Shown piece after piece: positions 1-59,797 of a stretch of DNA of 64,000 nt. Under the pieces are notes generated by a model that was not told where the DNA came from, searched no databases, and saw only the letters and a list, made by a program, of their open reading frames with translations. The stretch comes from Pseudomonadota bacterium (lineage in GTDB: Bacteria > Pseudomonadota > Alphaproteobacteria > Rhodobacterales > Rhodobacteraceae). The DNA is taken from the NCBI GenBank assembly GCA_038526275.1, contig JBCBGY010000001.1:16344-80343 (forward strand), written 5' to 3'. A program made the translations under genes and the position numbers. Within the stretch, counting starts at the first letter, position 1. Each line of letters begins with the position of its first letter.

Positions 1-1
1 G

Positions 2-997
2 TTGGGAGGCGTCTATATTGGCCTGGAGGACTGGCCCCGCACCGAACAGGTGATCCGCACGCTAAAGCGGGCCAACACAGAACGCGGCAACGCCATCGCC
101 GATCAACTGACCCTTGCAGTATTGCAAGCACAGGATCGCCAGGATGAGGTTCTGTCCTTCCTCGACGAACTTGCCTCGGAAGAGGGTGGCAATCTTGGCG
201 CCGAAATCGGTGTGCTGGATCTGCACCTGCAAAATGGCGAATTGGACAAGGCCGGCGAACATCTGGCCGGTCTGCTGGAACGCCGACCCGAGGATCGCGG
301 CCTTCGGTTCCTTGATGCCGTGCTGGAGGGCCTACAAGGGAATCCAGATGCGGCCATTGCCGGTTACCGAGAACTGTTGGCAGAGGACCCGGGCACAGAG
401 CGGATTTGGCTGGAACTGATCCGGTCGCTCAACGCCCAAGGGTTGGCTGACGAGGCTATGGCCGCTCTTCGCGACGGCATTGCCGCCAATCCCGAAGCCC
501 CCAACCTGCAATGGATGCTGGCAAGCCGTCTGGAAGCGGACGGCGACTTCGAGGGCGCCCTGAGTATCTATGAGGCGCTTTACGATCAGAATACCTCGAC
601 CAGCGTCATCGCCAATAACTTCGCCAGCCTATTGTCGACGCTGCGCGACGATCCGGAAAGCCTTGATCGCGCCTACCGCGTCGCCCGTCGCCTGCGGGAC
701 AGCGATTTCCCACCGTTTCAGGACACATATGGCTGGATTGCATACTTGCGGGGCGACCATGAAGAAGCCCTGCGACATCTGGAACCGGCTGCAAGAAGCC
801 TGGCCGAAGATCCGCAGGTGCAATACCATTTGGCGAAAACTTACATTGCCTTGAAGCAACCTGAAAAGGCCCGCCCGGTTCTGGAACGCGCCTTGGACAT
901 CGCAGGCGACGATCCGCGCCCCATCTTCGAAGATGCCCGCGAACAGCTGAACAAGCTCAGTTCCGCCGAAAGCACAGCTCCCACAGCCTCAGAGTGA
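2..997 (+). CDS. Tetratricopeptide-repeat protein of an exosortase/EPS locus (5'-truncated by window edge)
   Basis: Repeating helical TPR-like units (e.g. YGWIAYLRGDHEEALRHLE, QYHLAKTYIALKQPEKAR); lies upstream of wza-like and exosortase genes. Confidence 0.75.
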   Translation: MGGVYIGLEDWPRTEQVIRTLKRANTERGNAIADQLTLAVLQAQDRQDEVLSFLDELASEEGGNLGAEIGVLDLHLQNGELDKAGEHLAGLLERRPEDRGLRFLDAVLEGLQGNPDAAIAGYRELLAEDPGTERIWLELIRSLNAQGLADEAMAALRDGIAANPEAPNLQWMLASRLEADGDFEGALSIYEALYDQNTSTSVIANNFASLLSTLRDDPESLDRAYRVARRLRDSDFPPFQDTYGWIAYLRGDHEEALRHLEPAARSLAEDPQVQYHLAKTYIALKQPEKARPVLERALDIAGDDPRPIFEDAREQLNKLSSAESTAPTASE

Positions 998-1124
998 TGC
1001 GTAAAAACGACGATACCTGACCGGTTGTGGCGATTGGTCGAGAATTTTGGCCGAATACCTTCTCTACCCCGCCGCAATCGCTTATCCCGTAAACAAAGAC
1101 TAAACGATGCGGGTAGGGATCGAG

Positions 1125-1718
1125 ATGCGTAGCCTATGTTTTCTGCTGCTTTCGCTCTTTTTTGTGTCGGCCGCTGCCGCACAGAATTATGGCATCCAGC
1201 CAGGCGATAATCTTCAGATCGAGGTTGTTGAAGACAACACCTTGAACCGCTCGGTTCTTGTCACGCCTGACGGTCGGATAAGCTTCCCGCTGGCGGGCAC
1301 AGTCGACGTCGGCAACCGCACAGTTGAACAGGTCCGTCGTACGCTCATCAGCCGCCTGGCCCCGAACTTTGCCAACCCACCCACCGTGTTCGTTGCGGTG
1401 AGCCGGTTGGGCGAACGGCAACCGGAACCAGAAGCAGCGCTGGACACGATGACGATCTACCTTCTGGGAGAGGTCGAAAGCCCCGGCCCAAAACAGGTCG
1501 AATCCGGTCTGTCTATCCTGCAATTCCTGTCAACAAGCGGCGGATTTACCCGTTTCGCCGCGACCAAGCGCGTGCAAATCCGCCGGCGGGTTGGTCACAC
1601 CGAGAAACTGGTGAAGGTGAATTACCACGCCTTGGCACGGGGTGCGCGCCTTGTCCGCGATGTCATCCTGCACGATGGGGACGTCATCCTCGTCCCCGAA
1701 CGCCGCCTGTTCGAGTAA
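1125..1718 (+). CDS. Polysaccharide biosynthesis/export protein (Wza-like, Poly_export + SLBB)
   Basis: Signal peptide, then YGIQPGDNLQIEV...VTPDGRISFPLAG; SLBB-like GEVESPG...GGFTRFA; ends LHDGDVILVPE. Start set at ATG 1125 (alternative 1107). Confidence 0.9.
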   Translation: MRSLCFLLLSLFFVSAAAAQNYGIQPGDNLQIEVVEDNTLNRSVLVTPDGRISFPLAGTVDVGNRTVEQVRRTLISRLAPNFANPPTVFVAVSRLGERQPEPEAALDTMTIYLLGEVESPGPKQVESGLSILQFLSTSGGFTRFAATKRVQIRRRVGHTEKLVKVNYHALARGARLVRDVILHDGDVILVPERRLFE

Positions 1719-1722
1719 CCCG

Positions 1723-3102
1723 ATGAGGCTAAAGGACGCCCGTGGCAAGACATTGGGTCTGGCGCTGGTGATTGGGTCCGTGGGCGGTGTGATGGCGCAA
1801 GAGCGTCAACCACCTCCCGGCATCGAATACACGCTTGATGTCTCAACCGGCATTGTGACCAGCGATAACCTCGAGAACGTGGCCGACCCGAGCGGTCGTT
1901 CGACGTTTTCGCGGACGAACCTCACCTTCGGGGCACGCTCGCAAACGCGGACATCAAACCTGGCGCTTAGCTTCGGCGGTCGGCTGGAAGCCGGACACTT
2001 CGCCGAGGACGATGACACGACAACCCAGTTTGAAAACCCGTTCATCAACCTGTCCTACAGTCAGGAAGCGAAACGGGCCAATTTTACGTTCTTCGGCTCC
2101 TACCGCGAAACCGACATCAACCGCAGCCGCATCGTCGAGGACGAGTTCGAGAATGAAGACCTGATCGAGGATGACGGCACCCGGGCCGACACCGATCTGC
2201 GTTTTGGGATTGAGACCGACCCTGGCGGCACATGGGGCACCAGCCTCGACCTTCGCTATCGCACGCGGAGCTTTGACGGTGTCACCAGCGACGAACTGAC
2301 TGATACCGAACTCTTTTCCATCACCGCCGGTCTGCGGATGCTGGTAACCCCCACAACGACTGTCCGCCTGACGGCGTTCCAGTCGACCTTCACCGATGAT
2401 GACGAAGACAACACCGAGCAGAACACGTTCCGCTACGGGGGGTCAGTCAGCTATGACTTTACCCGAACGACCCGGTTCAATGCGGGCCTGTTCCATGTGC
2501 GCCTGGAAACCGATACCGATGACGACACCGATGTGGATGAGGGGCCGTCCTTCAATTTCGGCGTAGAACATGACCGACCCAACGGTGTGATCGCGGCGAA
2601 TTTTGCCAACAACGTTGTCCGCAACGGCCGGAGGCAAACCTTACGGGTGCGCCGCGACTACGAACTGAAACGCGGGGATCTGAGCTTTTCGGTCGGTGCG
2701 ACGCAGACCAACGGCAATGGGTGGGACCCGCTGTTTGGTGTCACCTACCAAGAAGATCTGAAGCGCGGCTCCTACCAGCTTCGACTCAGCCAGAACGGCC
2801 GGACCGATACTGATGGAGATTCGTTCACCAATACCCGGTTCAGCGCCAATTATCGGCATGATATCAATAGCATCTCCGGTCTGGAGCTTGATCTCGCCCT
2901 TACCGAAAGTGAAGCCGATGCCGAGGATGGCACAGACCGCCGCCGAACATCGTTCGGCGTGACCTACAGGCGGGATCTCACCCGCGACTGGCAGTTGCGC
3001 ACGGGCTATGAACATCGGGTAAGCCGGACCAATGACGAAGATACCCGCCGCACAAATACCTTATTCGCGACGATCAATCGCAGTTTTTCCCTGCGACCTT
3101 AG
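1723..3102 (+). CDS. Outer-membrane beta-barrel protein of EPS/exosortase locus
   Basis: Signal peptide, alternating beta-strand pattern, aromatic-rich C-terminal strand (TLFATINRSFSLRP); start placed at ATG 1723 just after the wza stop. Confidence 0.7.
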   Translation: MRLKDARGKTLGLALVIGSVGGVMAQERQPPPGIEYTLDVSTGIVTSDNLENVADPSGRSTFSRTNLTFGARSQTRTSNLALSFGGRLEAGHFAEDDDTTTQFENPFINLSYSQEAKRANFTFFGSYRETDINRSRIVEDEFENEDLIEDDGTRADTDLRFGIETDPGGTWGTSLDLRYRTRSFDGVTSDELTDTELFSITAGLRMLVTPTTTVRLTAFQSTFTDDDEDNTEQNTFRYGGSVSYDFTRTTRFNAGLFHVRLETDTDDDTDVDEGPSFNFGVEHDRPNGVIAANFANNVVRNGRRQTLRVRRDYELKRGDLSFSVGATQTNGNGWDPLFGVTYQEDLKRGSYQLRLSQNGRTDTDGDSFTNTRFSANYRHDINSISGLELDLALTESEADAEDGTDRRRTSFGVTYRRDLTRDWQLRTGYEHRVSRTNDEDTRRTNTLFATINRSFSLRP

Positions 3103-3216
3103 CGCTTGGTTAATGACACTCATGTGATCCCTTGTGCGGGTCGAAATCTTTAGCCTTTTGAGCTATGTGATCGACCGCGGGGGCGTCATCGAGCACCATT
3201 GTTGGGGACCGACGAG

Positions 3217-4800
3217 ATGAATGTGAATATTGCTGGCGTTCGGTCGGTTAATCCGCTGGGCCTTTTCTTCTTTTCCCTGCTTATGGTGGCCTCAGTCCCG
3301 ATTTTTTGGTTGGGATTTGAATCGCTTGCCCGTGCCTGGGCCACGCCGGAATACAGCCACGGGCCACTGATCCCGCTTATTTCGCTTTACCTCTTCATCC
3401 GAGAGCTTCGTAACTCTCCGCCGCTCGAGCCGGTCGTAACCGATCGGGCCCCGGGTGTCGTTGTGATCGTTGTGTCGCTGGCCATCGCCATTCTGGGCAA
3501 TATCGCGCGTATACCTGACATCGTGACCTATGCCTTCATCCTATGGACAGGCGGCGTTACGCTGACGGTTTTTGGTTGGAAACGCGGCATCACCCACTGG
3601 GCACCCGTTCTGCATCTGATCTTCATGTTGCCCCTGCCCCAGTTCTTGTACTGGCAGATGACCATCTTCCTCCAGGGCGTGTCGTCTGAACTGGGTGTGT
3701 GGTTTGTTCGTATGGCCGGTGTGTCGGTCTTCCTGGAAGGCAACATCATCGATCTGGGCGTCTTCAAACTGCAAGTGGCCGAGGCCTGTTCCGGCCTGCG
3801 TTACCTGTTCCCGATCCTCAGCTTTAGCTATCTGATGGCCATCCTCTACCGCGGGCCGATCTGGCATAAGGCGATCCTGTTGCTGTCCGCCGCGCCGTTG
3901 ACCGTGTTCATGAACTCGTTCCGCATCGGTGTTGTGGGCGTTGTGGTTAACTCCTACGGTATTGAGCATGCTGAAGGCTTCATGCACTTCTTCGAAGGCT
4001 GGATCATCTTTATCGCCTGCATTGCGATCCTGTTCCTGATGGCCATTTGCCTGCAGCGGCTGACACCAAACCCACTGCCCCTGTCGCAGGCCATCGATCT
4101 GGATTTCGAAGGTTTCGGCCCGATCATGGCCCGGATCGCTGGCATCAAGCTTTCCAAAGCGATGATTGCCGCTTGCGCCATCACTATCGCCATCACCTCT
4201 GCCTGGATCGTCTTCAAGCCGAATGGCGAGACAGTGCAGCTTGACCGTGACCCGTTTGTGCTGTTCCCAAATCGGATCGATGGCTGGGTTTCTGTTCGGA
4301 GCTCGCTGGAGCCAGAGGTCGAAGCGACGCTGGCTGCGGATGATTACCTGAACGCCACATTCTCCACTGCGGGTGAGCCGGCTGGTGTGAACATGTTCAT
4401 CGCCTACTATCACAACCAGACGGATGGTTCCGGCATCCATTCGCCCGAGGTCTGCCTGCCGGTGGGGGGCTGGGAAGTATTCAATCTGGCCGAGCACGAG
4501 GTGAGCTTTCCCGACTCAGTCTATGGCACGTTCAATGTGAACCGGGCGGTCATCGAAAAGGGCCTGTCACGGCAGCTGGTCTATTACTGGTTCGAACAGC
4601 GCGGCAAGCGGATGACCAACGACTTCGCCGCCAAGCTGAGCGTGGTCTATGACAGCCTGAGCGAAGGCCGCACCGACGGTTCGCTGATCCGTTTCGTCAC
4701 ACCGATTGCGCGTGGAGAAACCGAAGCGGAAGCCGAGGCCCGCATGCAACGCCTGATCGGGACGGTTCTTCCGAAGTTGCCTCGTTTCGTGCCGAACTGA
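3217..4800 (+). CDS. xrtD: Exosortase, XrtD (VPLPA-CTERM-specific) type, fused to C-terminal EpsI domain
   Basis: EYSHGPLIP, catalytic [22 protein letters not shown] motifs; EpsI domain with [12 protein letters not shown] and LVYYWF; subfamily assignment from sequence style and Rhodobacterales context. Confidence 0.85.
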
Positions 4801-4918
4801 CTTTTGGCGTAACGGTTGCCGGACCCGGCAGGTCTTGCCATCACCTTGCCCAAAATGTCACCGCAGAATGCGGTAATGAACTCGACAGTTCGCCTAATAC
4901 CTTACACATTTCCTTGGC

Positions 4919-6349
4919 ATGAACGAAGGTGCCAAGATGCGTGCCATGACTGATCGCAGCAGCGGCAACCCCGACAGGTTGGGCCTGGCCCTGCTGGTGG
5001 CCGTCATCGCCGTTTGCGCTGGTGCGGAACTCCTATTTCTTGCGGCGGACTGGGGGGTGCTCGACATCCCCCGCCTGCGCCAACGCGCCTATGATAACGG
5101 TGCGTTCCGTCCCCAACTGTTGCTGGGCACCTGGCGGCCGAACTATGCAGCGCAGCCCTGGACCATGTTTCTGACTTACGGCTTTCTGCATGGCGGGCCT
5201 ATCCATATGCTCGTAAATATGGCGACGCTTTGGTCCATCGGCCTACTGGTCCTGGACCGGATCGGGCCAAAAGGCTTGGCGTTACTTTATCTTGGCGCCC
5301 TACTAGGCGGCGCAGTCGCATATGGCGTGATTTCAGAATCGTTGCGCCTGATGGTGGGGGCATCTGGCGCACTATTTGGACTAGCCGGGGCCATGGTGAT
5401 CTGGCTTTGGGTCGACCGCGACCTGCATGCCGGCAACTTGCGGCTGATGTGGAACCTTTTGGGGTATCTGCTGGCGATGAACCTGGTCATGTACTGGGCG
5501 CTCGACGGTCAACTGGCCTGGGAAACCCACCTTGGGGGGTTCCTCGTGGGCTGCGGGTTGGGCTACACCCTCGATCGCCCGAGGAACGAACATTCCGAAG
5601 CAGAGATCGACCCGCCCGAACCGAGAAGGCTGACGTACCTCGTGGGCGACATACATGGCTGCTTCGCCCAACTCGACAACATGCTGGACCAAATCGCCCA
5701 ACATCGAAACGGACGCCCTGCGGATCTGGTCTTTCTCGGTGACTATGTCGACAGAGGTCCGGACAGCGCAGGAGTGTTGGAGCGCCTCATGGAACTGGAA
5801 CGTTCCCCCGACGTGACCTGCCTGATGGGCAATCACGACGTGATGATGCTGGGCTTCCTCGACGAACCTACCACAAAGGGTACCAGTTGGATGATCAATG
5901 GCGGCCAGGAAGCGCTGATCAGCTTTGGCCTCAATCCAATGGTCGCCGCACCCGATGCGGCCAGCCGGCAGACTCAACTGGCCCAAGGCCTGCGCGCCGC
6001 CATGCCCGACGGATTGGAAGACTGGATCAGAACAAGGCCGCTTTGGTGGCAAAGCGGCAATGTCATTGCTGCCCACGCTTTGACCATTCCTGATGCTCCG
6101 ATGTCGGAGCAAAGTGACGCAGTTCTGCTCTGGGCCAGGCCAAAGAAGGACACGCCGGCCCGATATGACGGCACTTGGGTCGTTCATGGTCATACAATTG
6201 TCCCAGAACCACGCATAACACCGGGATATATCGCTATTGATACAGGAGTATTCCGAACCGGTCGCCTGACTGCCGTGGTTTTAGGCGATGGACCAACACA
6301 GTTCCTGCAGGCAACAACCATGGTGGCATTCGCTGAGCAGACAGGATAA
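4919..6349 (+). CDS. Rhomboid intramembrane serine protease fused to a PPP-family (calcineurin-like) metallophosphoesterase
   Basis: One ORF: rhomboid motifs FLHGGPIHMLVN, GASG (Ser149), AWETHLGG (His204); then GDIHG, GDYVDRG, GNHD, HGHT, IDTG. Start uncertain (4919/4937/4946). Confidence 0.85.
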   Translation: MNEGAKMRAMTDRSSGNPDRLGLALLVAVIAVCAGAELLFLAADWGVLDIPRLRQRAYDNGAFRPQLLLGTWRPNYAAQPWTMFLTYGFLHGGPIHMLVNMATLWSIGLLVLDRIGPKGLALLYLGALLGGAVAYGVISESLRLMVGASGALFGLAGAMVIWLWVDRDLHAGNLRLMWNLLGYLLAMNLVMYWALDGQLAWETHLGGFLVGCGLGYTLDRPRNEHSEAEIDPPEPRRLTYLVGDIHGCFAQLDNMLDQIAQHRNGRPADLVFLGDYVDRGPDSAGVLERLMELERSPDVTCLMGNHDVMMLGFLDEPTTKGTSWMINGGQEALISFGLNPMVAAPDAASRQTQLAQGLRAAMPDGLEDWIRTRPLWWQSGNVIAAHALTIPDAPMSEQSDAVLLWARPKKDTPARYDGTWVVHGHTIVPEPRITPGYIAIDTGVFRTGRLTAVVLGDGPTQFLQATTMVAFAEQTG

Positions 6350-6381
6350 GCGCAGCTCAACAATCCGCCAAAGAGGTCTAA

Positions 6382-7794
6382 ATGATATACCCCGTCATTC
6401 TCTGTGGTGGTTCTGGCACCCGTTTGTGGCCCAGTTCCCGCAGATCCTACCCCAAGCAATTCACAGGCTTCTTTGGCGACGAGACCCTGTTTCAAGTCAC
6501 GCTGAAGCGCCTGACCGGGCCGGATTTCGGCCAGCCGCTGGTGATGACAAATGCCGACTTCCGGTTCATCGCAACCGAACAGTGCGAAGCCGTTGGATTG
6601 GCCGATGCGCGCGTTGTGATCGAGCCCGCATTGCGCAATACGGCCCCCGCCATTCTGGCAGCAGCCTTGTTGCTGGAAAACGAACCGGACGCCTTGATGC
6701 TGGTCGCCCCGTCCGACCATGTCATGACCGGAATTGACAGCTTTCTGGAAGCCGTCCGCGAAGGCGCCAAATCCGCCGCTGCAGGCAAGTTGGTCACCTT
6801 TGGTGTGACGCCGGATCGCCCTGAAACGGGTTACGGCTATCTCGAACTGGCCGCCCAACCTGACGGTCTGGCAGCATACCCCCTGACCAGCTTTACAGAA
6901 AAACCTGACCTGGAAACGGCTCAAGCCCTGCTGGCGGGCGGCAAACACCTGTGGAATGCGGGCCTGTTTCTGTTCCGGGTCCGCGACATCATCGCAGCGT
7001 TCGAGGCCCATGCACCAGATATGATGGCCCCCGTCCGAAAATCGGTGGAAACCGGCGAAACCGATTTGGGCTTTTTCCGTCTGGGCGAAGATGCCTATGC
7101 CGGTGCCCCATCGGACAGCATAGACTATGCGGTGATGGAAAAGGCCGACAATATTGCCGCCGTGCCCCTGACCAACGGCTGGTCAGACCTTGGCAGCTGG
7201 GATGCGCTCTGGGCTGCGTCGGATCCCGACTCAGACGGTATCGTAACGCAAGGGTCGGCCACCGCCGTCGACTGTGCGAATACGTTCCTGCGATCAGAAG
7301 AGGACAGTCTGCACCTGGTCGGAGTCGGTCTGAACAATGTCGTTGCCGTCGCCATGCGCGATGCTGTGCTCGTTGCCGACATGGAGAAGGCGCAGGATGT
7401 CAAGAAGGCAGTAACTCTGCTAAAACAATCTCAGGTTGAACAAGCGGAACACTATCCGCGTTTCCATAGACCATGGGGTTGGTATGAAACTTTGTGTCTG
7501 GGACAGCGTTTTCAGGTCAAGCGGATCATGGTGAAGCCGGGTGGTATCCTGTCATTACAAAGCCATGTCCATCGGTCGGAACACTGGATCGTCGTGGGCG
7601 GAACCGCAGAAGTTACCGTTGGTGAAGAGAAAAAACTGCTGACAGAAAACGAATCTGTCTACATTCCTCTGGGCGCCGTGCATCGCATGGCCAATCCTGG
7701 ACGGGTGCCCATGTACCTGATTGAGGTCCAAACAGGCACCTATCTGGGGGAAGATGACATTGTTCGTTACGAAGATGTTTACAATCGGGGCTAG
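6382..7794 (+). CDS. manC: Mannose-1-phosphate guanylyltransferase / mannose-6-phosphate isomerase
   Basis: PVILCGGSGTRLWP, PKQF, RNTAPAI, ETGYGY, EKPD, WNAG, SIDYAVME, WSDLGSW, C-terminal cupin RPWG...HRSEHW. Confidence 0.95.
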   Translation: MIYPVILCGGSGTRLWPSSRRSYPKQFTGFFGDETLFQVTLKRLTGPDFGQPLVMTNADFRFIATEQCEAVGLADARVVIEPALRNTAPAILAAALLLENEPDALMLVAPSDHVMTGIDSFLEAVREGAKSAAAGKLVTFGVTPDRPETGYGYLELAAQPDGLAAYPLTSFTEKPDLETAQALLAGGKHLWNAGLFLFRVRDIIAAFEAHAPDMMAPVRKSVETGETDLGFFRLGEDAYAGAPSDSIDYAVMEKADNIAAVPLTNGWSDLGSWDALWAASDPDSDGIVTQGSATAVDCANTFLRSEEDSLHLVGVGLNNVVAVAMRDAVLVADMEKAQDVKKAVTLLKQSQVEQAEHYPRFHRPWGWYETLCLGQRFQVKRIMVKPGGILSLQSHVHRSEHWIVVGGTAEVTVGEEKKLLTENESVYIPLGAVHRMANPGRVPMYLIEVQTGTYLGEDDIVRYEDVYNRG

Positions 7795-7873
7795 AAGCCC
7801 CGCGACCTTTGAACCCCTCTCGTCGATGCGCTAAGGCGCACGGTAGAACTGGCGCAGGAAAGCGAAGCACTAC

Positions 7874-9139
7874 ATGAAGGTCATAATTTTCGGGCTCGGC
7901 TATGTGGGATTTACGGCGGGATGCTGCATCTCGTCAGAAGGCCACCAGGTCATCGGCGTCGATGTGAGCCAGAAGAAAGTGGATGCGATCAATGGCGGCG
8001 AAGCCCCAATCGTAGAACCCAAGGTTGCAGAAATGTTGAGCGACGCTCAGTCCAAGGGACTGTTTATCGCCGACACGCAGATTGGCAGCTATCTTGAAGG
8101 GGCAGATCTGGCGATCGTCTGTGTGGGCACGCCGTCAGCCGCCGATGGATCGCACAACATGGCATATATTGCCGATGTGAGCCGCCAGATCGCCCGGGCC
8201 CTGGCAGAGGGCACGGGAAAGCTGACCATCGCTTACCGGTCGACCATTCGCCCGGGCACGATCGAAGAGCTGATCCTGCCCATCTTCCGCTCAATCCTTG
8301 GAGACGAGACCGACGAACGGGTATCGCTGGTCTATAACCCGGAATTCCTGCGCGAAGGTTCTGCTGTTAAGGACTATTTCGAACCGCCGAAGATCGTGAT
8401 TGGCACACATGACGGCCAACCGAACCCGGCCATGGAAACCCTGAACGCCAATATCACTGCGCCGACCTTCTATGTTGGCTTCCGCGAGGCCGAGGTAACA
8501 AAGTTCGTCGACAATACCTGGCACGCTGTGAAAGTGGCCTTCGCCAATGAGATTGGGCGGGTCTGCCTTCAGACCGGTATATCGGCCAAGAAGGTGCATG
8601 AGATCTTCGTCAGCGACACCAAGCTGAACATCTCCCCCTACTACATGCGTCCGGGGGGAGCCTTTGGCGGGTCCTGCTTGCCCAAGGATGTGCGGGCGCT
8701 GCAGTATATTGGGGCCGACACAGGGTCGAACCTGCACTTGGTGGACAGCCTGATCCGCTCGAATGAGGCCCACAAGCATGCTCTTTTCGCCCATGCCGTT
8801 GATGGGTTGAAAGAAGGGGCATCGGTTTTGATGGCGGGCTTGGCCTTTAAGGCCGGAACCGACGATCTGCGCGAAAGCCCGAATGTCGATCTTGCACGGA
8901 AACTGCTGGCTGCGGGCTACAAGCTGGACATTTTTGATCCAGCCATCGCTGCCGATATGCTTGTCGGCGCGAACCTTGGCTATGCATTCAGCCAGTTGCC
9001 GACATTGGAGCGCATCCTTGTTGACCGAGACACGGCGCGCAACGGCAGCTACGATCGGGTGATCTCGACCAACGCGACGGTAAAGCAGTTAGATTTGCCT
9101 GCCGAAACCGAAATCCTAGATTTGGGGACGCTGCCATAA
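7874..9139 (+). CDS. GDP-mannose 6-dehydrogenase-like nucleotide-sugar dehydrogenase (AlgD-like)
   Basis: FGLGYVG, CVGTPS, NPEFLREG, YYMRPGGAFGGSCLPKDVRAL, GLAFKAGTDDLRESP, close to AlgD wording; adjacent to manC. Confidence 0.85.
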   Translation: MKVIIFGLGYVGFTAGCCISSEGHQVIGVDVSQKKVDAINGGEAPIVEPKVAEMLSDAQSKGLFIADTQIGSYLEGADLAIVCVGTPSAADGSHNMAYIADVSRQIARALAEGTGKLTIAYRSTIRPGTIEELILPIFRSILGDETDERVSLVYNPEFLREGSAVKDYFEPPKIVIGTHDGQPNPAMETLNANITAPTFYVGFREAEVTKFVDNTWHAVKVAFANEIGRVCLQTGISAKKVHEIFVSDTKLNISPYYMRPGGAFGGSCLPKDVRALQYIGADTGSNLHLVDSLIRSNEAHKHALFAHAVDGLKEGASVLMAGLAFKAGTDDLRESPNVDLARKLLAAGYKLDIFDPAIAADMLVGANLGYAFSQLPTLERILVDRDTARNGSYDRVISTNATVKQLDLPAETEILDLGTLP

Positions 9140-10380
9140 TGGATGGAGTGATTGAAAGCCGAACCCCTCGCATGGATGCGGTCCGCGCCGAGCAGCCGCT
9201 TGCCGGACGAAAGGTGCTGATCGTTGTCGAAAACCTGCCCTTGCCGTTTGACCGCAGGGTTTGGCACGAATGCCGGACCCTGACTGCGGCGGGCGCTCTT
9301 GTCAGTGTGATCTGCCCCACCGGCAAGGGTTATGAAGCGCCTTACGAAGAGATCGACGGGGTGCATATCTATCGCCATAAATTGCCCTTCGACGCGTCTG
9401 GCGCGATCGGGTACTTGGTCGAATATGGCGCGGCGCTTTGGCACGAAATGCGTTTGGCCCTTCGAATCGCGCGAAAGCACGGGTTCGATACGATTCAGGG
9501 CTGCAATCCGCCTGACCTGATCTTCCTCGTCGCGTTGCCCTTCAAGCTGTTCGGCAAGCGCTACATCTTTGATCATCACGATATTAACCCAGAGCTCTAC
9601 GAGGCCAAGTTCAACGAGCGCGGCTTTTTCTGGCGGTTGATGATGACCTTCGAGAAGTGGACCTTCCGCACGGCAAAGGTCGTCATCTCGACCAACAATT
9701 CCTATCGCGACATTGCAATGACCCGTGGCGGCAAGAAGGCCGAAGACGTCTTCGTCGTGCGCTCCGGCCCCGACCTGACCCGCCTGCATGTCCTGCCGCC
9801 GAACGACAAATGGCGCAACGGGCGCAAGCATATGGTCGGCTATGTCGGGGTGATGGGCGCGCAGGAAGGATTAGATCTTCTGCTCGAAAGCGCGAAGGAC
9901 ATGATCCAGAACCGTGGGATCGATGTGCAATTCGTGCTGGTCGGTGGTGGCCCGTCCCTGGCAGAGCTTCAGGCGATGGCCGCGGATATGGGTCTGCAAG
10001 ACCACGTTACCTTTACCGGTCGCGCGCCGGATCAGGATTTGTTTGAGGTGCTGTCAACGGCGGATGTGTGCGTGAACCCGGATCGCGTGAACCCGATGAA
10101 CGACAAATCCACAATGAACAAGATTCTGGAATATATGGCCTTTTCAAAGCCGATCGTGCAGTTCGAAGTGGCCGAAGGGCGGTACTCCGCACAGGATGCC
10201 TCGCTTTACGCCGTGCCGAACGACACCAAGGACATGGCCGACAAGATTGCGGAACTGCTGGAAGATCCCGAAAGGCGCGCCAAAATGGGTCAGTTTGGGC
10301 GCGCCCGGGTCGAGGCGGAACTGAGCTGGGATCACCAGGTAGATACGCTCATCGCCGCCTATAAACGGGCCGCCGCTTAA
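9139..10380 (+). CDS. Glycosyltransferase family 4
   Basis: VENLPLPFDRRVW, HHDINPE, YVGVMGAQEG, KILEYMA (EX7E region); TAATG coupling to upstream gene. Confidence 0.9.
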   Translation: MDGVIESRTPRMDAVRAEQPLAGRKVLIVVENLPLPFDRRVWHECRTLTAAGALVSVICPTGKGYEAPYEEIDGVHIYRHKLPFDASGAIGYLVEYGAALWHEMRLALRIARKHGFDTIQGCNPPDLIFLVALPFKLFGKRYIFDHHDINPELYEAKFNERGFFWRLMMTFEKWTFRTAKVVISTNNSYRDIAMTRGGKKAEDVFVVRSGPDLTRLHVLPPNDKWRNGRKHMVGYVGVMGAQEGLDLLLESAKDMIQNRGIDVQFVLVGGGPSLAELQAMAADMGLQDHVTFTGRAPDQDLFEVLSTADVCVNPDRVNPMNDKSTMNKILEYMAFSKPIVQFEVAEGRYSAQDASLYAVPNDTKDMADKIAELLEDPERRAKMGQFGRARVEAELSWDHQVDTLIAAYKRAAA

Positions 10381-10643
10381 GACAGGCCCTGAATACCTGT
10401 GGCCGTCGTTCCCGTGGCCCAAACACGGCTCACGCGGATCGGGAACATGGAACCGGCCGCGATGTAGACCGTGCCCACGTCGCCTGTGCTGGTCGTCACG
10501 CGAACCGAACCGCTGCCTGACACGTTCAGCGCGCGGGTCATGTACGCCAAGTCATTGTCATTATTGGGTGTGATCGCTTCGATCCGTTCAGCGGGTGAGG
10601 TCGGGCTGGTAGCGAACTCTCTAAAGATGTCAGTGGTGCTCAT
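10377..10643 (-). CDS. 88-aa GTA head-spike base protein homologue (Rcc01079/GhsA-like family)
   Basis: MSTTDIFREF..SPTSPAERIEAITPNNDNDLAYMTRALNVSGSGSVRVTT...FPIRVSRVWATGTTATGIQGLS fits the family pattern (SPA..., TP.D..DL...TRAL.V...G, P.RV.RVWATGTTA); GGAG RBS upstream; it is the real 3' part of the 376-aa ORF call. Confidence 0.75.
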   Translation of the reverse strand: MSTTDIFREFATSPTSPAERIEAITPNNDNDLAYMTRALNVSGSGSVRVTTSTGDVGTVYIAAGSMFPIRVSRVWATGTTATGIQGLS

Positions 10644-10799
10644 GGACTGCTCCTGCACATGGGGTGATGGCGGTCTTTTAGGCGGCAAACCTCCCCACCC
10701 CCTTACCGAACCGTTCGGCGTACCCATGATCTCGCAACAGGCGCTGGCGACGGCGACGGGTTGAGCGTAGACTATCCCAAAATCAGGAGGCGCACTTTC

Positions 10800-11561
10800 A
10801 TGTCCACAATGCTGTTCAGCAATTTGCCCAATATCAGCCACTGGTCCGACCGGGTCGATCTGGCCGCAGCCTTCCGCTGGACGGCCCGGCTGAACATGCA
10901 CGAAGCCGTGGCAAACCATTTCAGCCTCGCGGTAAATGACAGCGGCACCAAATTCCTGATGAACCCCAATCAGGTGCATTTTTCGCGCATTCGCGCCTCT
11001 GATCTGCTGCTGATCGATGCTGAAGATCCCCAAACGCTCAACGCTGCCAATGCGCCCGACCCAACAGCCTGGGGGCTTCACGGTGCCTTGCATCGTAAGT
11101 GTCCCCATGCCCGTTGTGCCATGCATGTGCATTCGATTTTCGCCACTGTGCTGGCATCGCTCGAAGATAGCCGCCTGCCGCCCATCGATCAGAACTGCGC
11201 CATGTTCTACGACCGGTGCGTGATCGACGAAGAATATGGAGGACTGGCCTTCGAAGAAGAGGGCGAGCGCTGCGCCGAGCTTTTGCAGGATCCCAAGCAC
11301 AAGGTGCTGATCATGGGGAACCACGGCGTCATGGTCATTGGCGAAACTGTCGCTGACACGTTCAATCGGCTTTACTACTTTGAGCGCGCGGCGGAGACTT
11401 ACATCCGAGCCTTGCAAACCGGTCAGCGTCTGCGCGTCATTCCCAAAGATATTGCCGAAAAAACCGCGCAAGAGATCGAGGACTATCCCGACCAGGCCAC
11501 AAAGCACCTGTCCGAGTTGAAGCTCATTCTGGACGCCGAGGATCCAGACTACGCCAAATGA
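10800..11561 (+). CDS. Class II aldolase/adducin family protein
   Basis: NHFS, GLHGALH, MHVHS (Zn-binding His), MGNHG; AGGAGG RBS before ATG 10800. Confidence 0.85.
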   Translation: MSTMLFSNLPNISHWSDRVDLAAAFRWTARLNMHEAVANHFSLAVNDSGTKFLMNPNQVHFSRIRASDLLLIDAEDPQTLNAANAPDPTAWGLHGALHRKCPHARCAMHVHSIFATVLASLEDSRLPPIDQNCAMFYDRCVIDEEYGGLAFEEEGERCAELLQDPKHKVLIMGNHGVMVIGETVADTFNRLYYFERAAETYIRALQTGQRLRVIPKDIAEKTAQEIEDYPDQATKHLSELKLILDAEDPDYAK

Positions 11562-26520: not shown

Positions 26521-29500
26521 TCAGGCGATGTCTTCGGGCAAGGCTGTGATGAACTCAATATCGTCCACCAACTCATTCACATCAGCGACGCCACGCACCT
26601 GAAGCGTGTCGCCATTGCCAAAGGTGAACTGGGTGAAGATGCGACCGACCTGATCGGCGAACTGATCCACCACTTCCTGGGCCGTTAGATCGGCATTGTC
26701 CCAAAGCTCCGTGTTGAAGAGGATCGTGTCGACATCATTTTCGAAATCCAAAACGAGGTCGCGGTCCGAATCCCGTTCATAGTAGAACGTGTCGCCGCCA
26801 GCCCGACCAAGCAACAGATCATTCCCGGTGCCACCGTCGAGGAAATCTTCGTTGTTGCCGCCATCCAAGCGGTCTGCACCCTCTCCACCGAAGAGACTGT
26901 CATTTCCATTGCCGCCGCGCAGATCGTCGATGCCTTCGCCACCGAACAGTTGGTCAACACCCATTCCGGCCGCGAGGATGTCGTTTCCAGCACCCCCTGC
27001 AAGAAAATCGTCACCTTGGCGGCCCCGGATAACGTTGTTGCCATCACTGCCGAAGATCACGTCAGCCGCGGTCGTGCCGCGAACATCTGCGTTTGTCGTC
27101 CCTTGCAGCGTGAATTCGGTGACACCCGCGTCCAGGAAGAAGTTGGCATAGAACGGCGCATCAGCAATGACGGTCAAATCCTGATCGGCGACAGAGGTTT
27201 GGCCGATACCGCCGATGGCATCCGGCTCGTTTACAACGATGGCATTGCCGTCTTGAGCAGCATTCAAAGCCAGGTCGAAATCGCCAAAGGCTCCGATCTG
27301 CTGTTGCAGATCCGGCGAGGCGAATACGGACACGAACACGGTCGGTTCATCCGGTCCCAGATCGAGGCCGATGATGACCGGGTCGTGGTCCGAATTGCGG
27401 AACGGGACCGAGCCGTCAAAGATGGACGCGTCCCTGCCAAATTCCAGATTGTAGTCCAGCGCGTCCGGCTCGTCTGCATTGACATGCCATTCGGTGGCGC
27501 CAGTGACCTGATCCAACAGGCCCGCATTGGCCAGCGCATAGTCGAGCGTACCGGTCAGACCGTCAAAGACGAAGCTGTAGGCATCCTCACCCACAAACTG
27601 TTCGGCCAGATCCGTGAAGCCCTGGCTTTCCAGATAGGTGATCGGGTCTTCGTTGGCATAGGCATTCAGGTCACCGAGGATCAGAATGTCTTCATCACCG
27701 GAACCGGTCGGGTCCCCGGCGAGCCAGGCTTCCAATTCAATAGCGGCCTTTGTACGGGTGTCGTTCCAAAATCCTTGGCCGTCCAACTGATCGCTGTCCG
27801 GATCTGCCGCGTCGCCAGCGGTCAGACCGCTGCTGCCTTTGGATTTGAAGTGGTTGACGGATGCAGTGAAGCTTTCGCGGGTCTCAATCTCTTGGAAGGT
27901 CTGGGCCAAAGCTGCGCGGTTGCGGCCACCATCGGTGGTACTGTTGGGATCGATGAACGCTTCGGTGTCCAGCACCGCCGCGTCTCCGACCAGGGTCGTA
28001 GAGGTGGTGTCGTAGATGAAGCCCACGGCGATTGCGTCGCCGCCCACAAATTCCGACGTTGTCGTAGTTTGGCCAGACGGGCGCACCCAATCGTAGATCG
28101 TGCCACCGAGCGACGCGTTCACCGCATCGACCAGCTCCTGGATCGCAACGCCAGACCCGATGACATTACCTGTGCCGGTCGGGGCATCGCCGCCGGTGGC
28201 AAAGTCGTTTTCCAACTCGACCAGGCCCACAACGTCGGCATCCATTGCGACCAGGGCTTGCACCAGCTTATCGAGTTGCCGGTTATATTCCTCATCGAAG
28301 GCAGGCGTCGGGTCGGCATTCTGCGGATTGGCATCTGCACCGCGCGGGTCCAGACCATTCGGGCCAGAGCCCTCGTCCGCATCTGGGAACTCGTCCAGCG
28401 TCGTGAAGAAGTTCAGAACGTTCAGGCTGGCGACCTTGTAGTCTGACCCCACATCCTCGGGCGCGTCCTCGCGTTCATTGACCTTGTCGAACGTGTTCTC
28501 GCCGTCCTGCGTCGCGCGCACCCGCCAGGTGGCGCCGGAAGCTGCGTCGCCCGCCCATTGGTAGCTCAACACGCCAGACAGATCGTCGATCGTGTCGCCC
28601 ATGCGGATGTCTGTGGCGGTGCTAAAGGTCGGGCCGAACCCATCAAGGTTGCCGATAGCGGCGTTCTGTTCGCTTAGGCCATCGTCATAGGTGATGGTGC
28701 GGCTGCCAACCTCTTCCAGATAGGCGGCGAAGCTTGCAGCATCCGGGTCGTTGAACTGCGTGAACTGTTCCGGACGATCGCCCTCGGTCAGCTTGATCTC
28801 GTTGAACCGGTCAAGCTGGAACATCTCGGTAATGGTCAACGTGTCGGCGAACGTGACCAGCATGCCCTCAAACGCTTCGAGATCGGGCTGAAAATCGCCG
28901 TCCTGGCTCAGCGTCGTGCTGCTGGAGGGCAGATCGATCGTGGCCGCCGTGGGCAGCGTATTGCCAGAAGAGATGATGGTAATGTCGGTGATCGTATCAA
29001 GCTGCGTCTCGCCAAAGAACTCGTCGACCGTGCCGGTGATCTGAACTTTGTCGCCGACATTGACGTCGGTGATGAAGTCGCCGTTCTCGAAGACGAAGAT
29101 ACCTTCCGACGTGGCAACATCACCATCGGCGTCCGCATCCTCTTCCTGGATATAGAAGCCCCGCAAGTCACGGCTATCATCCGCGTCACCATCCTGGAAA
29201 TCGCCCACAACGATGGCTTCGACCGTCACAACCTGATCGTCGAGCAGGTTCTGGTCTTCGGTGCCCTGGATTTCGTGGATCTTGGTAAGCGCAACCTCGT
29301 CGCTGGTGATCGTGCCTTCGCCCGTATCATCTGCGATCTCGACGCCGTTCGTTGCGTTTGACAGAGCCACGGTAAAGGTCTCGTCCGCCTCTACATCCGT
29401 GTCGTCGATCAGATCCACTGTGACCTGCTGCGTTTCGCCTGCAGTACCGGCAAAAATCAGCGTCCCCGACGTTGCAACATAGTCGCTGCCAGCCAGTGCG

Positions 29501-30831
29501 GTGCCGTCGACGGTGGTGAAATCGACCTGAGTACCACCGGTCACATCGGCAGACAGGGTAACGTCGAACGTTGCCGTACCGTCGGTTTCCGAAACCGTCA
29601 CATCGCTGATCTGAAGGCTGGGCGTGACAGTGCCGCCGCTTGTACCGGTGACCAACACATTGTCGATGGCCACATCTTCGTCGCCGGCATTCAACTGGTA
29701 GGTCAGGCGCAGATCCAGCGTGGAACCAGTGCCAGCAATATCGGCCAGGAAGGTTTGGAACGTGTCCGTCAATTCCGTGCCATCACCGTCGCCATCGAAG
29801 TCGGTATCAACCGCCGGAACGGCGTTGAACGCATCACCATCCGGCACTGACTCAAAGTGCAGCAGGTTCTGAAAGCCGCCACCATCGATCTGGTAGTCGA
29901 TGTGGAAGAAGTCGGTCAGATCCCAGTCTTCCGCACTGTCGCCTGCGGTATCTTCCGCCACATCAATGGCGAACTGCAGATCGGTCAGGCCAGCAATATC
30001 CAGGCCCGTGAAATCCATGGTCACGGGCAATGCTGCCCCTTCCCCGTCAAGGTCCTGAGCGGCGAAGAACGTGCCATCTGCATCGAGCAGGTCGTACCCG
30101 GTACCGATGTTCGTCGTTCCATCAGTGCGGATGAAGAAGTCGAAGAACCCGTCCGAGAATTCCGGTGTCGATACGGTGTAGGCGACGTCAGCGTCTTCGA
30201 AATCCTCCAGCACCACGACGGTGGGGCCAGCTTCGGTGCCCTCCACCACGAAGTTATCGAACGCTATATCTTCGTCACCTGCATTCAGGCTGAACGTAGC
30301 CCGCACGTCCAGAGTCGAACCCAAGCCAGCAATGGCCGCAGTGAAGGTCTGGAAAGCATTGGTCAGTTCGGTGCCATCACCGTCGCCATCGAAGTCGGTA
30401 TCAACAGCGGGAACGGCGTTGAACGCATCACCATCCGGGACAGACTCAAAGTGCAGCAGGCTTTGATAGCCGCCGCCATCGATTTGAAAATCGATATGGA
30501 CAAAATCGCTCAGATCCCAGTCTTCATTGCCGTCGCTGGAATCATCTTCTGCCGCGTCGACCGAGAATGACAGATCGGTGAAGCTGGAAATGTCGATTCC
30601 GGTGAAATCCAGCGTTACCGGCAGAGCAGCGCCTTCGCCGTCGATATCCTGGGCCGCGAAGTAGGCGCCGTCATTTCCGGTAATCTCGTAGGTTCCGCTG
30701 ATCGTTGTGCCCACCAGCGCGCCAACCCGGGAAAAGAAGTCAAAGCTTCCATCGGAAAATTCTGGGGTGCTGGTCGAGTACCGCGTGCCGTTTCCGTCTG
30801 TTGTAAAGCTTTCTGTGAAGATGACCGTCAT
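26521..30831 (-). CDS. ExeM/NucH family extracellular endonuclease: duplicated N-terminal domain, Calx-beta, OB-fold, EEP nuclease, RTX Ca-binding repeats
   Basis: VASLNVLNFF, VGLVELEN, GGDAIAVGFIY, VNHFKSKG, ILGDLNAY, TLDYAL, SDHDPV; Calx-beta DVTVSETDGTATFDVTLS; GGxGxD repeats near C-terminus; start at MTVIF. Confidence 0.9.
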   Translation of the reverse strand: MTVIFTESFTTDGNGTRYSTSTPEFSDGSFDFFSRVGALVGTTISGTYEITGNDGAYFAAQDIDGEGAALPVTLDFTGIDISSFTDLSFSVDAAEDDSSDGNEDWDLSDFVHIDFQIDGGGYQSLLHFESVPDGDAFNAVPAVDTDFDGDGDGTELTNAFQTFTAAIAGLGSTLDVRATFSLNAGDEDIAFDNFVVEGTEAGPTVVVLEDFEDADVAYTVSTPEFSDGFFDFFIRTDGTTNIGTGYDLLDADGTFFAAQDLDGEGAALPVTMDFTGLDIAGLTDLQFAIDVAEDTAGDSAEDWDLTDFFHIDYQIDGGGFQNLLHFESVPDGDAFNAVPAVDTDFDGDGDGTELTDTFQTFLADIAGTGSTLDLRLTYQLNAGDEDVAIDNVLVTGTSGGTVTPSLQISDVTVSETDGTATFDVTLSADVTGGTQVDFTTVDGTALAGSDYVATSGTLIFAGTAGETQQVTVDLIDDTDVEADETFTVALSNATNGVEIADDTGEGTITSDEVALTKIHEIQGTEDQNLLDDQVVTVEAIVVGDFQDGDADDSRDLRGFYIQEEDADADGDVATSEGIFVFENGDFITDVNVGDKVQITGTVDEFFGETQLDTITDITIISSGNTLPTAATIDLPSSSTTLSQDGDFQPDLEAFEGMLVTFADTLTITEMFQLDRFNEIKLTEGDRPEQFTQFNDPDAASFAAYLEEVGSRTITYDDGLSEQNAAIGNLDGFGPTFSTATDIRMGDTIDDLSGVLSYQWAGDAASGATWRVRATQDGENTFDKVNEREDAPEDVGSDYKVASLNVLNFFTTLDEFPDADEGSGPNGLDPRGADANPQNADPTPAFDEEYNRQLDKLVQALVAMDADVVGLVELENDFATGGDAPTGTGNVIGSGVAIQELVDAVNASLGGTIYDWVRPSGQTTTTSEFVGGDAIAVGFIYDTTSTTLVGDAAVLDTEAFIDPNSTTDGGRNRAALAQTFQEIETRESFTASVNHFKSKGSSGLTAGDAADPDSDQLDGQGFWNDTRTKAAIELEAWLAGDPTGSGDEDILILGDLNAYANEDPITYLESQGFTDLAEQFVGEDAYSFVFDGLTGTLDYALANAGLLDQVTGATEWHVNADEPDALDYNLEFGRDASIFDGSVPFRNSDHDPVIIGLDLGPDEPTVFVSVFASPDLQQQIGAFGDFDLALNAAQDGNAIVVNEPDAIGGIGQTSVADQDLTVIADAPFYANFFLDAGVTEFTLQGTTNADVRGTTAADVIFGSDGNNVIRGRQGDDFLAGGAGNDILAAGMGVDQLFGGEGIDDLRGGNGNDSLFGGEGADRLDGGNNEDFLDGGTGNDLLLGRAGGDTFYYERDSDRDLVLDFENDVDTILFNTELWDNADLTAQEVVDQFADQVGRIFTQFTFGNGDTLQVRGVADVNELVDDIEFITALPEDIA
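29645..30831 (-). repeat. Tandem intragenic duplication (~594 nt period) at the nuclease N-terminus
   Basis: LLHFESVPDGDAFNAVPAVDTDFDGDGDGTELT occurs twice; DNA near 29777 and 30371 is near-identical. Confidence 0.9.
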
Positions 30832-30998
30832 CGCCCTGTCCTTGCAAACGCCGACTAATTTTACGTGGAGGTACGACATCCGCGAGCAAAACAAGATCTT
30901 GCCTGACGGATTTCCCCCCTGACCCGGTCCATATGGGATTTAGCGGGCGGGGAATATTCATAGTTTTATGACGCTGCGTTAATACCCCAGCAGTTTGA

Positions 30999-59122: not shown

Positions 59123-59797
59123 ATGTCCTTGAGAATGCTGGCCGCAGTTGCGGCAACCGTGTGTGCGACAACGGCCTCGGCCAAAACCCTGGTCTTCACC
59201 GAAACTGTCAATATTCAGTCGACCGATTGGACAGAGATCCTCTCAATCAAGCAGTTCAATCCTTTGCAGGGTACGTTGTTTGGCGTCACGGTCAGCTTGG
59301 AAGGCACGGTTGAAGGTGCCGCCGCCGCCGAAAGCCATGATCAGGAACCAGCTACAATTACCCTCGATCTATCCTCCCTGCTTTCTGTCTCCAACGATGC
59401 GCTCGGCGAAATCGTCACTGTCGAACCTTTGGTGCAGTCCTCCTTTGATGCTGACGCCTTTGATGGCGTCTACGACTTCAACGGGCCGTCGGGCACCTCA
59501 TTCGGCGGTCTCTCCGCTATGGAGATGGCCTACGCGATGTTGACGCCAGGCGACCTGGCCCTTTTCGTTGGCAGCGGCGACGTAGAATTTACCGTAACGG
59601 CGCAAGGCCAGTCCTCTGCCTCCGGCCCTGGCAATCTCGCAACCCTGTTCAGCACCCAGGCGTCGGCCGTCCTGAATGTGACATACGATTTCTCACCCCT
59701 GCCTATCGCACTTGTCCCAACGCCTGGCTCGGGTGCGCTGGCCCTCGGCGGCGTTGGAATGCTGGTCCTGGCGCGCAGGCGCCGCGCCAAGGCGTAA
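59123..59797 (+). CDS. Choice-of-anchor E-like surface protein with PEP-CTERM-type sorting signal
   Basis: Signal peptide; TDW..LSIKQFNP..GTL..V..SLEG core; C-terminus VPTPG + hydrophobic helix + RRRRAK. Confidence 0.75.
   Translation: MSLRMLAAVAATVCATTASAKTLVFTETVNIQSTDWTEILSIKQFNPLQGTLFGVTVSLEGTVEGAAAAESHDQEPATITLDLSSLLSVSNDALGEIVTVEPLVQSSFDADAFDGVYDFNGPSGTSFGGLSAMEMAYAMLTPGDLALFVGSGDVEFTVTAQGQSSASGPGNLATLFSTQASAVLNVTYDFSPLPIALVPTPGSGALALGGVGMLVLARRRRAKA

Follow-up and report, generated by a model that had tools for sequence, protein, structure and literature searches.

The stretch of DNA analysed here (64,000 nucleotides, or 64 kb, of contig JBCBGY010000001.1 from a member of Rhodobacteraceae; hereafter, the window) opens with an exosortase-type exopolysaccharide (EPS) locus on the plus strand of positions 1–10380, whose last gene runs into a small convergent gene of 88 codons. 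The product of this small gene belongs to the family of Rcc01079, the head spike base of RcGTA, the gene transfer agent (GTA) of Rhodobacter capsulatus. Its ATG is the reverse complement of 10641–10643 and its TAA that of 10377–10379, and the encoded protein begins with MSTTDIFREF and ends with ATGIQGLS. The last EPS gene, encoding a GT4/GT1 glycosyltransferase of 413 amino acids, stops with the TAA at 10378–10380, and both stop codons lie inside a single TTAA. The open reading frame (ORF) and its AGGAG ribosome-binding site are read directly between 10377 and 10654, and both the gene with its own ribosome-binding site and the stop overlap stand as an original prediction, made from the sequence alone, had described them.

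That prediction also regarded the gene as hidden, which is true of the mechanical ORF list but not of public annotation. In the list, the spike base gene is absorbed into a minus-strand ORF of 376 amino acids (10377–11507) because a longest-ORF list merges the small gene with the antisense of the neighbouring class II aldolase gene, which makes up the remainder of that spurious ORF. However, ordinary public gene callers do call the gene, and the identical 88-amino-acid protein is already annotated in the metagenome-assembled genome GCA_039819825.1 at NCBI and in three Logan marine-metagenome assemblies, with identical neighbours across the four assemblies.

Identity of the spike base gene and its locus

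The NCBIfam model NF048002 (an equivalog, "spike base protein, RCAP_Rcc01079 family") matches the window protein with 102.5 bits against a cutoff of 28 (E-value 1.1e-29), aligning residues 5–87 with profile positions 1–84 of 85; Pfam has no model for spike base protein. Among PDB sequences, phmmer finds the "Head spike base Rcc01079" of entries 6tb9, 6tba, 6tsu, and 6tui (E 4.8e-13, residues 5–84) and the "Spike Base Protein" of 8cjz (E 5.6e-4), a PDB code of which no mention was found in the literature covered. An AlphaFold2 model built from 14 sequences, with a mean predicted local distance difference test score (pLDDT) of 88.4, has six strands, and Foldseek aligns it with the RcGTA capsid 6tb9 at a probability of 1.00 and template modelling (TM) scores of 0.77/0.80, as well as with chain h of the Carin1 phage capsid 8cjz (TM 0.67), with no further significant match in the PDB. 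Moreover, a C-terminal ATGTTA motif (A76-T-G-T-T-A81) is invariant in Rcc01079 and in 81 aligned chromosomal sequences, namely the window and the 80 loci used for all comparisons, which are the best of 325 loci with relatives in a one-genome-per-species scan and come nearly all from Rhodobacterales. Since the profile and structure matches agree, the resemblance to Rcc01079 that the original prediction had pointed out is confirmed by the very comparisons it had proposed, and the protein is a member of the Rcc01079/GhsA spike-base family.

The gene is genuine and under purifying selection. Compared with its closest homologue with DNA available (L085, 77% amino acid identity), the ratio of nonsynonymous to synonymous substitution rates (dN/dS) is 0.13, and third codon positions account for 45 of the 71 nucleotide differences. 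All related loci fetched have an intact ORF, nearly all of the 80 loci have a GGAG-type site in front of the homologue, and the 4-bp convergent overlap with the GT4 gene is also present in L085 and in L081–L084. The shortness of the gene and its overlap with further open frames, among them a plus-strand ORF at 10471–10764 with a third-position GC content (GC3) of 0.69, could suggest that it is open merely by chance or is a decaying pseudogene; yet the strong third-position excess, the ribosome-binding site, and the intact homologues make this scarcely credible, and the profile score of 102 bits and the dN/dS of 0.13 effectively refute it.

In R. capsulatus, each of the eleven head spikes consists of a pentamer of Rcc01079 and one copy of Rcc01080, and the spike base grips the capsid penton through its N-termini (PMC7296036). 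By analogy, the window protein might form pentamers on the five-fold vertices of a capsid through its own N-terminal arms, a segment that differs from the consensus of those homologues that have a fibre partner. The sequence contains neither a signal peptide, a membrane segment, nor a PEP-CTERM tail. Thus, the proposal that a cell-surface protein unrelated to GTAs supplied the fold that GTAs later borrowed finds no support here, all the more so as viral copies of the gene lie in head modules. A role as a PEP-CTERM substrate of the exosortase was also considered and rejected, as the N-terminal signal peptide, the PEP motif, and the membrane helix with its basic tail are all missing.

The features around the gene are listed in Table 1. 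The presence of exosortase, ManC, and AlgD-like genes upstream bears out the mannuronate/exosortase glycan context that had been proposed for the locus, a label that is reasonable because the best solved relative of the dehydrogenase is GDP-mannose 6-dehydrogenase (1mfz, E 1.9e-93, compared with 1e-57 for UDP-glucose dehydrogenases). Actibacterium ureilyticum (Rhodobacterales) has EPS genes about 80% identical to those of the window, the GT4/GT1 protein sharing 82% amino acid identity with its orthologue there, and the sequencing runs with the region come from marine, algal, and plastisphere metagenomes; the host is a marine member of Rhodobacterales. Beyond the spike base gene and the aldolase follow genes for adenine deaminase, AMP nucleosidase, and other housekeeping and transport functions. 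The rhomboid and calcineurin-like metallophosphoesterase domains, fused in the window, are encoded by separate genes of similar size in other loci (clusters c32 and c25), and the fusion may be particular to the lineage of the window.

Table 1. Features of the EPS locus and the spike base gene, in window coordinates
Feature	Position	Strand	Basis
TPR protein, Wza-like polysaccharide export protein, outer-membrane beta-barrel	2..3102	plus	Pfam TPR, Poly_export/SLBB, OMP_b-brl
Exosortase (EpsH) fused to EpsI/DUF3485 domain	3199..4800	plus	Pfam E 5.5e-64 and 1.6e-51
Rhomboid domain fused to metallophosphoesterase	4919..6349	plus	Pfam Rhomboid, Metallophos
ManC, mannose-1-phosphate guanylyltransferase / mannose-6-phosphate isomerase	6382..7794	plus	Pfam NTP_transferase, MannoseP_isomer
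GDP-mannose 6-dehydrogenase-like enzyme (AlgD-like)	7874..9139	plus	Pfam UDPG_MGDP_dh
GT4/GT1 glycosyltransferase, final EPS-locus gene	9139..10380	plus	Pfam Glycos_transf_1, Glyco_transf_4
TTAA with the stops of both convergent genes, 4-bp overlap	10377..10380	no strand	sequence reading
Spike base coding sequence, Rcc01079/GhsA family, fibre-less clade	10377..10643	minus	profile, structure, dN/dS
Ribosome-binding site AGGAG, 6 nt 5' of the spike base ATG	10650..10654	minus	sequence reading
Class II aldolase, divergent from spike base gene	10761..11561	plus	Pfam Aldolase_II E 4e-42

Linkage of head-spike genes and surface-polysaccharide loci in Rhodobacterales

The rcc01079-80 pair of R. capsulatus lies directly upstream of the capsule genes rcc01081-86 and is co-regulated with them (PMC5026251; PMC10218006). 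Hynes et al. (2016) found an RcGTA-like cluster in every one of 21 Rhodobacterales genomes and homologues of rcc01079 in nine of them, and proposed a frequent horizontal exchange of the rcc01079-80 locus (PMC5026251). To these observations can be added the neighbourhoods of the 80 loci, in which homology-supported neighbouring ORFs were clustered and ranked by recurrence, with annotation only after the ranking. The recurrent families are almost exclusively polysaccharide genes: GT4 (31 loci), Wzy_C (25), exosortase (24), two clusters of GT2 (24 and 18) and two of Wzx-type flippases (19 and 8), WecG (14), Bac_transf, an outer-membrane barrel, and TPR (12 each), Poly_export (11), and acyltransferase 3 (10), together with ManC, UGD, pyruvyl-, sulfo- and GumK-type transferases, AsnB, and epimerases. 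With the window included, 55 of 81 loci have two or more polysaccharide genes no farther than 10 kb away, and in 43 there is one within 1.5 kb, species not being independent samples in these counts. None of these neighbours occurs in any of 80 viral loci that carry the spike base family.

The immediate arrangements are of at least 14 types (e.g., with arrowheads for direction, exosortase< base> GT2>; Wzy< base> fibre>; GT4< base> fibre>; base> fibre> GumK<; ParA-like> base> Wzx<; and Epim< base> ManC>), and therefore the linkage is not one inherited arrangement counted repeatedly. A statistical linkage of head-spike genes and surface-polysaccharide loci is thus shown across the order, and the position of the window gene at the edge of its EPS locus is one instance of it. 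The original expectation that spike and glycan-synthesis genes stay together holds well beyond the window, and in many different arrangements. No report of an order-wide linkage was found in the literature, whose coverage was partial, so that this is no proof of novelty, and no papers that tie exosortase loci to GTAs were found there.

Most likely, the linkage exists because exchange and selection act jointly on spike and glycan type. It could also have arisen without any function, if EPS loci are hot spots of recombination and horizontal transfer and the base gene hitch-hikes as phage-derived cargo at the border of an island; such an account would bear only on why the linkage exists and would leave the identity of the gene untouched. 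In L040 the base gene lies inside an EPS locus, between GT4 and Wzx genes and in opposite orientation, and in L033, L037, and L052, which belong to the same clade as the window, it stands beside the core genes of the window with no EPS gene within 10 kb; therefore, the base gene sits at rearrangement breakpoints, which, like the frequent horizontal exchange inferred previously (PMC5026251), is what hitch-hiking would produce. Nevertheless, the association spans all of the immediate arrangements counted above and involves both fibre-linked and fibre-less copies, no other phage-derived family recurs in these neighbourhoods, and the R. capsulatus pair is co-regulated with capsule genes (PMC5026251), so that passive hitch-hiking appears unlikely, though it deserves to be kept in mind, and joint exchange and selection of spike and glycan seems the better account.

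Two further proteins of the window are worth recording. The plus-strand gene at 59123–59797 encodes 224 amino acids with a signal peptide, a "choice-of-anchor E" domain, and a C-terminus (VPTP, a hydrophobic helix, and RRRRAKA) that resembles a PEP-CTERM sorting tail, its product probably being a substrate of the exosortase, whose gene is 55 kb distant. The minus-strand gene at 26521–30894 encodes 1457 amino acids with Calx-beta, an endonuclease/exonuclease/phosphatase domain, and RTX calcium-binding repeats.

Fibre partners, viral relatives, and the fibre-less clade

Residues 2–10 of Rcc01080 (I-A-L-G-L-G-L-G-L) form a five-point star in the hydrophobic pockets of the base pentamer (PMC7296036), and no homologue of rcc01080 had been found elsewhere in the order (PMC5026251). 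In most of the 80 loci, the next gene starts at the stop codon of the base gene or a few bases from it (−6 to +50), and these downstream genes open with an alternating hydrophobic/small motif that resembles the N-terminus of Rcc01080, such as MIGIGLDIS, MSISIALSL, MPGLGLGLG, MGLGLGIGLGL, MSGIGLGVGLG, MISLALALG, and MLGLAVGM. A strict version of this anchor pattern occurs in 39 of 80 downstream partners, compared with 14 of 762 other (background) ORFs, and by eye some 52–55 partners qualify. The bodies of the fibres in the Rhodobacterales loci are highly variable (186–1657 amino acids) and match no named family in Pfam, NCBIfam, or a PDB sequence search, apart from FN3 repeats in the fibre of L025, the one fibre compared with the PDB. 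Phage RcapNL has the same layout: its base gene, annotated as "tail fiber protein", is followed by an overlapping gene of 144 amino acids (L086:4252-4686) that starts with MGLGLGIGLGLS, and therefore the module of base and fibre is widespread, with only the anchor conserved. Thus, judged from these N-termini, head fibres seem to be widespread in Rhodobacterales despite the lack of rcc01080 homologues in the literature.

In L021 (position 10317) and L042 (position 10287), the genes after the base start with MKHGHSHSIG and MQYGYSYGSS, which keep the alternation with leucine replaced by histidine or tyrosine; these may be variant anchors paired with altered base pockets. Large proteins of 650–1100 amino acids, forming clusters c7 (e.g., L036:11136-13328, L028:14605-16563 on the minus strand, and L049:13109-15352) and c23 (e.g., L004:12184-15069), recur beside the base or the fibre, often as a third gene that follows the fibre. 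The representatives tested of both clusters have no match in Pfam or NCBIfam, and the c7 protein that was compared has none in the PDB; either the spike module or the glycan locus may include them as an additional component.

Relatives of the window protein, at most 56% identical to it, occur in 383 viral contigs of IMG/VR, where the gene is part of the head module and has neighbours that encode major capsid proteins (two Pfam types), portal proteins, and gp6-like connectors. Many of these viral copies have no fibre, the connector genes following directly. Among 50,697 sequenced phage records, matches were found only in RcapNL and in Pseudanabaena phage Pan1. The location of the viral copies in head modules indicates that decoration of phage capsids is the ancestral state, from which the base likely descended into GTAs, and the frequency of fibre-less bases in these modules indicates that a base without a fibre is a normal working state.

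These viral relatives also raise the question of whether the window protein serves the capsid of a resident prophage, or is the last gene of a decayed one, and has nothing to do with GTAs. The extra rcc01079 copies of R. capsulatus reside in prophages (PMC5026251), and L055 and L087 have a prophage-type context with an adjacent lysozyme gene. However, no phage gene is found among the ORFs examined in the 64 kb, the 77%-identical homologue has the same chromosomal arrangement and is under purifying selection, and chromosomal copies are closer to the window protein (≤60% identity) than the best viral copy (56%), all of which renders either prophage reading of this particular gene very unlikely.

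In a neighbour-joining tree, the window sequence groups with L040, L037, L033, L052, and L056, and this group adjoins another in which the base has a divergent exosortase gene on one side and a GT2 gene on the other, an arrangement found in 10 loci. None of these 18 sequences has a fibre partner.

Proposed role and comparison with known spike bases

The protein, a predicted six-stranded jellyroll of about 85 residues, would act as the base of a spike on capsid vertices, as the pentamer on each penton does in RcGTA, where it is held by N-terminal arms. The decorated capsid would be that of an RcGTA-like GTA of the cell itself, encoded elsewhere in the genome, and this capsid is the most probable one because the window comes from a marine Rhodobacterales genome and has no other phage gene. 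The fibre-less clade would have lost its adjacent fibre gene, and the base could then cap the penton by itself, as many phage bases do, or serve as a socket into which a fibre encoded elsewhere would fit. Taken together, the family, the host, and the setting suggest, with moderate confidence, that the window protein caps the pentons of the organism's own GTA capsid, alone or with a fibre encoded elsewhere.

Several observations weigh against this reading. No GTA genes, GTA regulators, or prophage genes are found among the ORFs examined across the 64 kb. The minus strand downstream of the base contains only the antisense of the GT4 gene, with no adjacent fibre gene, and no ORF N-terminus in the window carries the anchor motif, all matches being internal start codons of ordinary genes; the absence of a spike-fibre gene next to the base, which the original prediction had pointed out, thus extends to the whole window. 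The clade has substitutions at otherwise conserved positions, G13-L14 being replaced by T/S-P and, in most members, R37 by L/T, T58 by D, and V85 by R (in the window, S13-P14 is present, whereas R37 and T58 are unchanged), which could mean altered contacts with capsid or fibre, or a changed role. The median dN/dS of the fibre-less clade, 0.12–0.31 against 0.23 in fibre-linked copies, points to purifying selection of equal strength in both, but derives from pairwise comparisons in which dS is mostly saturated, with 0.1–0.25 in the less saturated pairs.

Control signals are likewise unsupportive. The late genes of RcGTA require CtrA~P and GafA (PMC9638019), and a scan for TTAA-N7-TTAA and its half-sites in the 200 bp upstream of all loci found no CtrA-type TTAA upstream of the spike base gene of the window; TTAA is present upstream in 32 of the 54 loci with a fibre and in 10 of the 26 without, no clear excess over chance. 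There is no conserved upstream motif, the upstream regions of the clade being unalignable, and no RNA run is among the listed sequencing runs with the region, which are of metagenomic DNA and one of unknown kind.

Some other candidate signals were inspected. A full CtrA-type TTAA-N7-TTAA lies about 195 bp upstream of the base in L028 and L044, between the divergent exosortase and the base; neither the window nor most other fibre-less loci have such a site. The 117-bp intergenic region between base and aldolase contains a perfect inverted repeat, CCGAAC-c-GTTCGG (10706–10718), which was rejected as an operator since L085, the 77%-identical homologue, lacks it. Scans of 9900–11000 found no promoter-like site for sigma-70 and a single terminator-like site, at chance level and inside the aldolase gene. 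The apparent ctrA beside the base gene in L033, L037, and L052 was also discarded, as it encodes an OmpR-family response regulator with no CtrA model among its 25 best NCBIfam matches.

The substitutions of the clade, its purifying selection without a fibre, and the position of the gene inside EPS loci (the 10 exosortase/GT2 loci and L040) would also fit a co-option for a role outside the capsid that is tied to polysaccharide synthesis, for instance as a small protein of the cytoplasm that binds sugars or regulates the exosortase-EPS system. Such a shift has no known precedent and seems decidedly improbable, as the fold and the invariant ATGTTA are retained, signals for export, membrane insertion, or PEP-CTERM sorting are lacking, and the fibre-less bases of phage head modules imply that capsid decoration does not need a fibre. 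Decoration of the GTA capsid is still preferred.

At the level of the order, a broader reading may be put forward tentatively, and is held at slightly less than even: a linked receptor–ligand cassette, in which a conserved base and a hypervariable fibre, constant only in its N-terminal five-point anchor, would be kept within exosortase- or Wzy-type EPS loci, GTA particles would bind by preference to cells with the glycan type of their producer, and one clade of bases would be fibre-less. If so, the reported lack of rcc01080 counterparts in the rest of the order would be due to fibre bodies having diverged rather than to missing fibres, and the fibre-less clade, being under purifying selection, would act as a bare penton cap or in a new role. 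Moreover, if spike modules travel with the polysaccharide locus, the compatibility of GTA donors and recipients would be encoded as a linked pair, which would bear on gene flow in marine roseobacters. The gene itself is one more member of a curated family, and the notable parts are the linkage, the anchor rule, and the fibre-less clade. The conserved N-terminal anchor offers a simple rule for recognizing head fibres of GTAs and phages that homology searches miss, the fibre-less clade provides a natural test of the base acting alone, and cultured strains in which these ideas can be tested include Actibacterium ureilyticum and several Rhodovulum species.

Compared with Rcc01079, the window protein has a similar length (88 and 84 amino acids), 42% identity in the structural alignment, the six-stranded jellyroll (predicted in the window), and the invariant C-terminal ATGTTA, and both genes lie away from a head-tail cluster, with no GTA genes in the 64 kb of the window, and directly beside surface-polysaccharide genes. 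However, rcc01079 is followed by rcc01080 and is located upstream of capsule genes, whereas the window gene has no adjacent fibre gene, converges with the last glycosyltransferase gene, and belongs to a glycan locus of the exosortase/GDP-mannuronate type; in addition, the otherwise conserved GLESPA reads SPTSPA in the window.

The spike bases of phages (chain h of Carin1 8CJZ, gp29 of RcapNL, the Pan1 protein, named "GTA-like head spike base protein", and the IMG/VR copies) share the family and the fold, and many of them are also fibre-less, but the viral copies lie in a head module and never beside EPS genes, whereas the window copy is solitary, chromosomal, and next to an EPS locus. A third likeness is to the modules of base and fibre in other Rhodobacterales (e.g., L001, L009, L016, L022, L029, and L061), whose orthologous bases, with 45–60% identity, share the association with EPS genes; unlike these modules and that of phage RcapNL, the window and its clade have no anchor-bearing gene downstream of the base.

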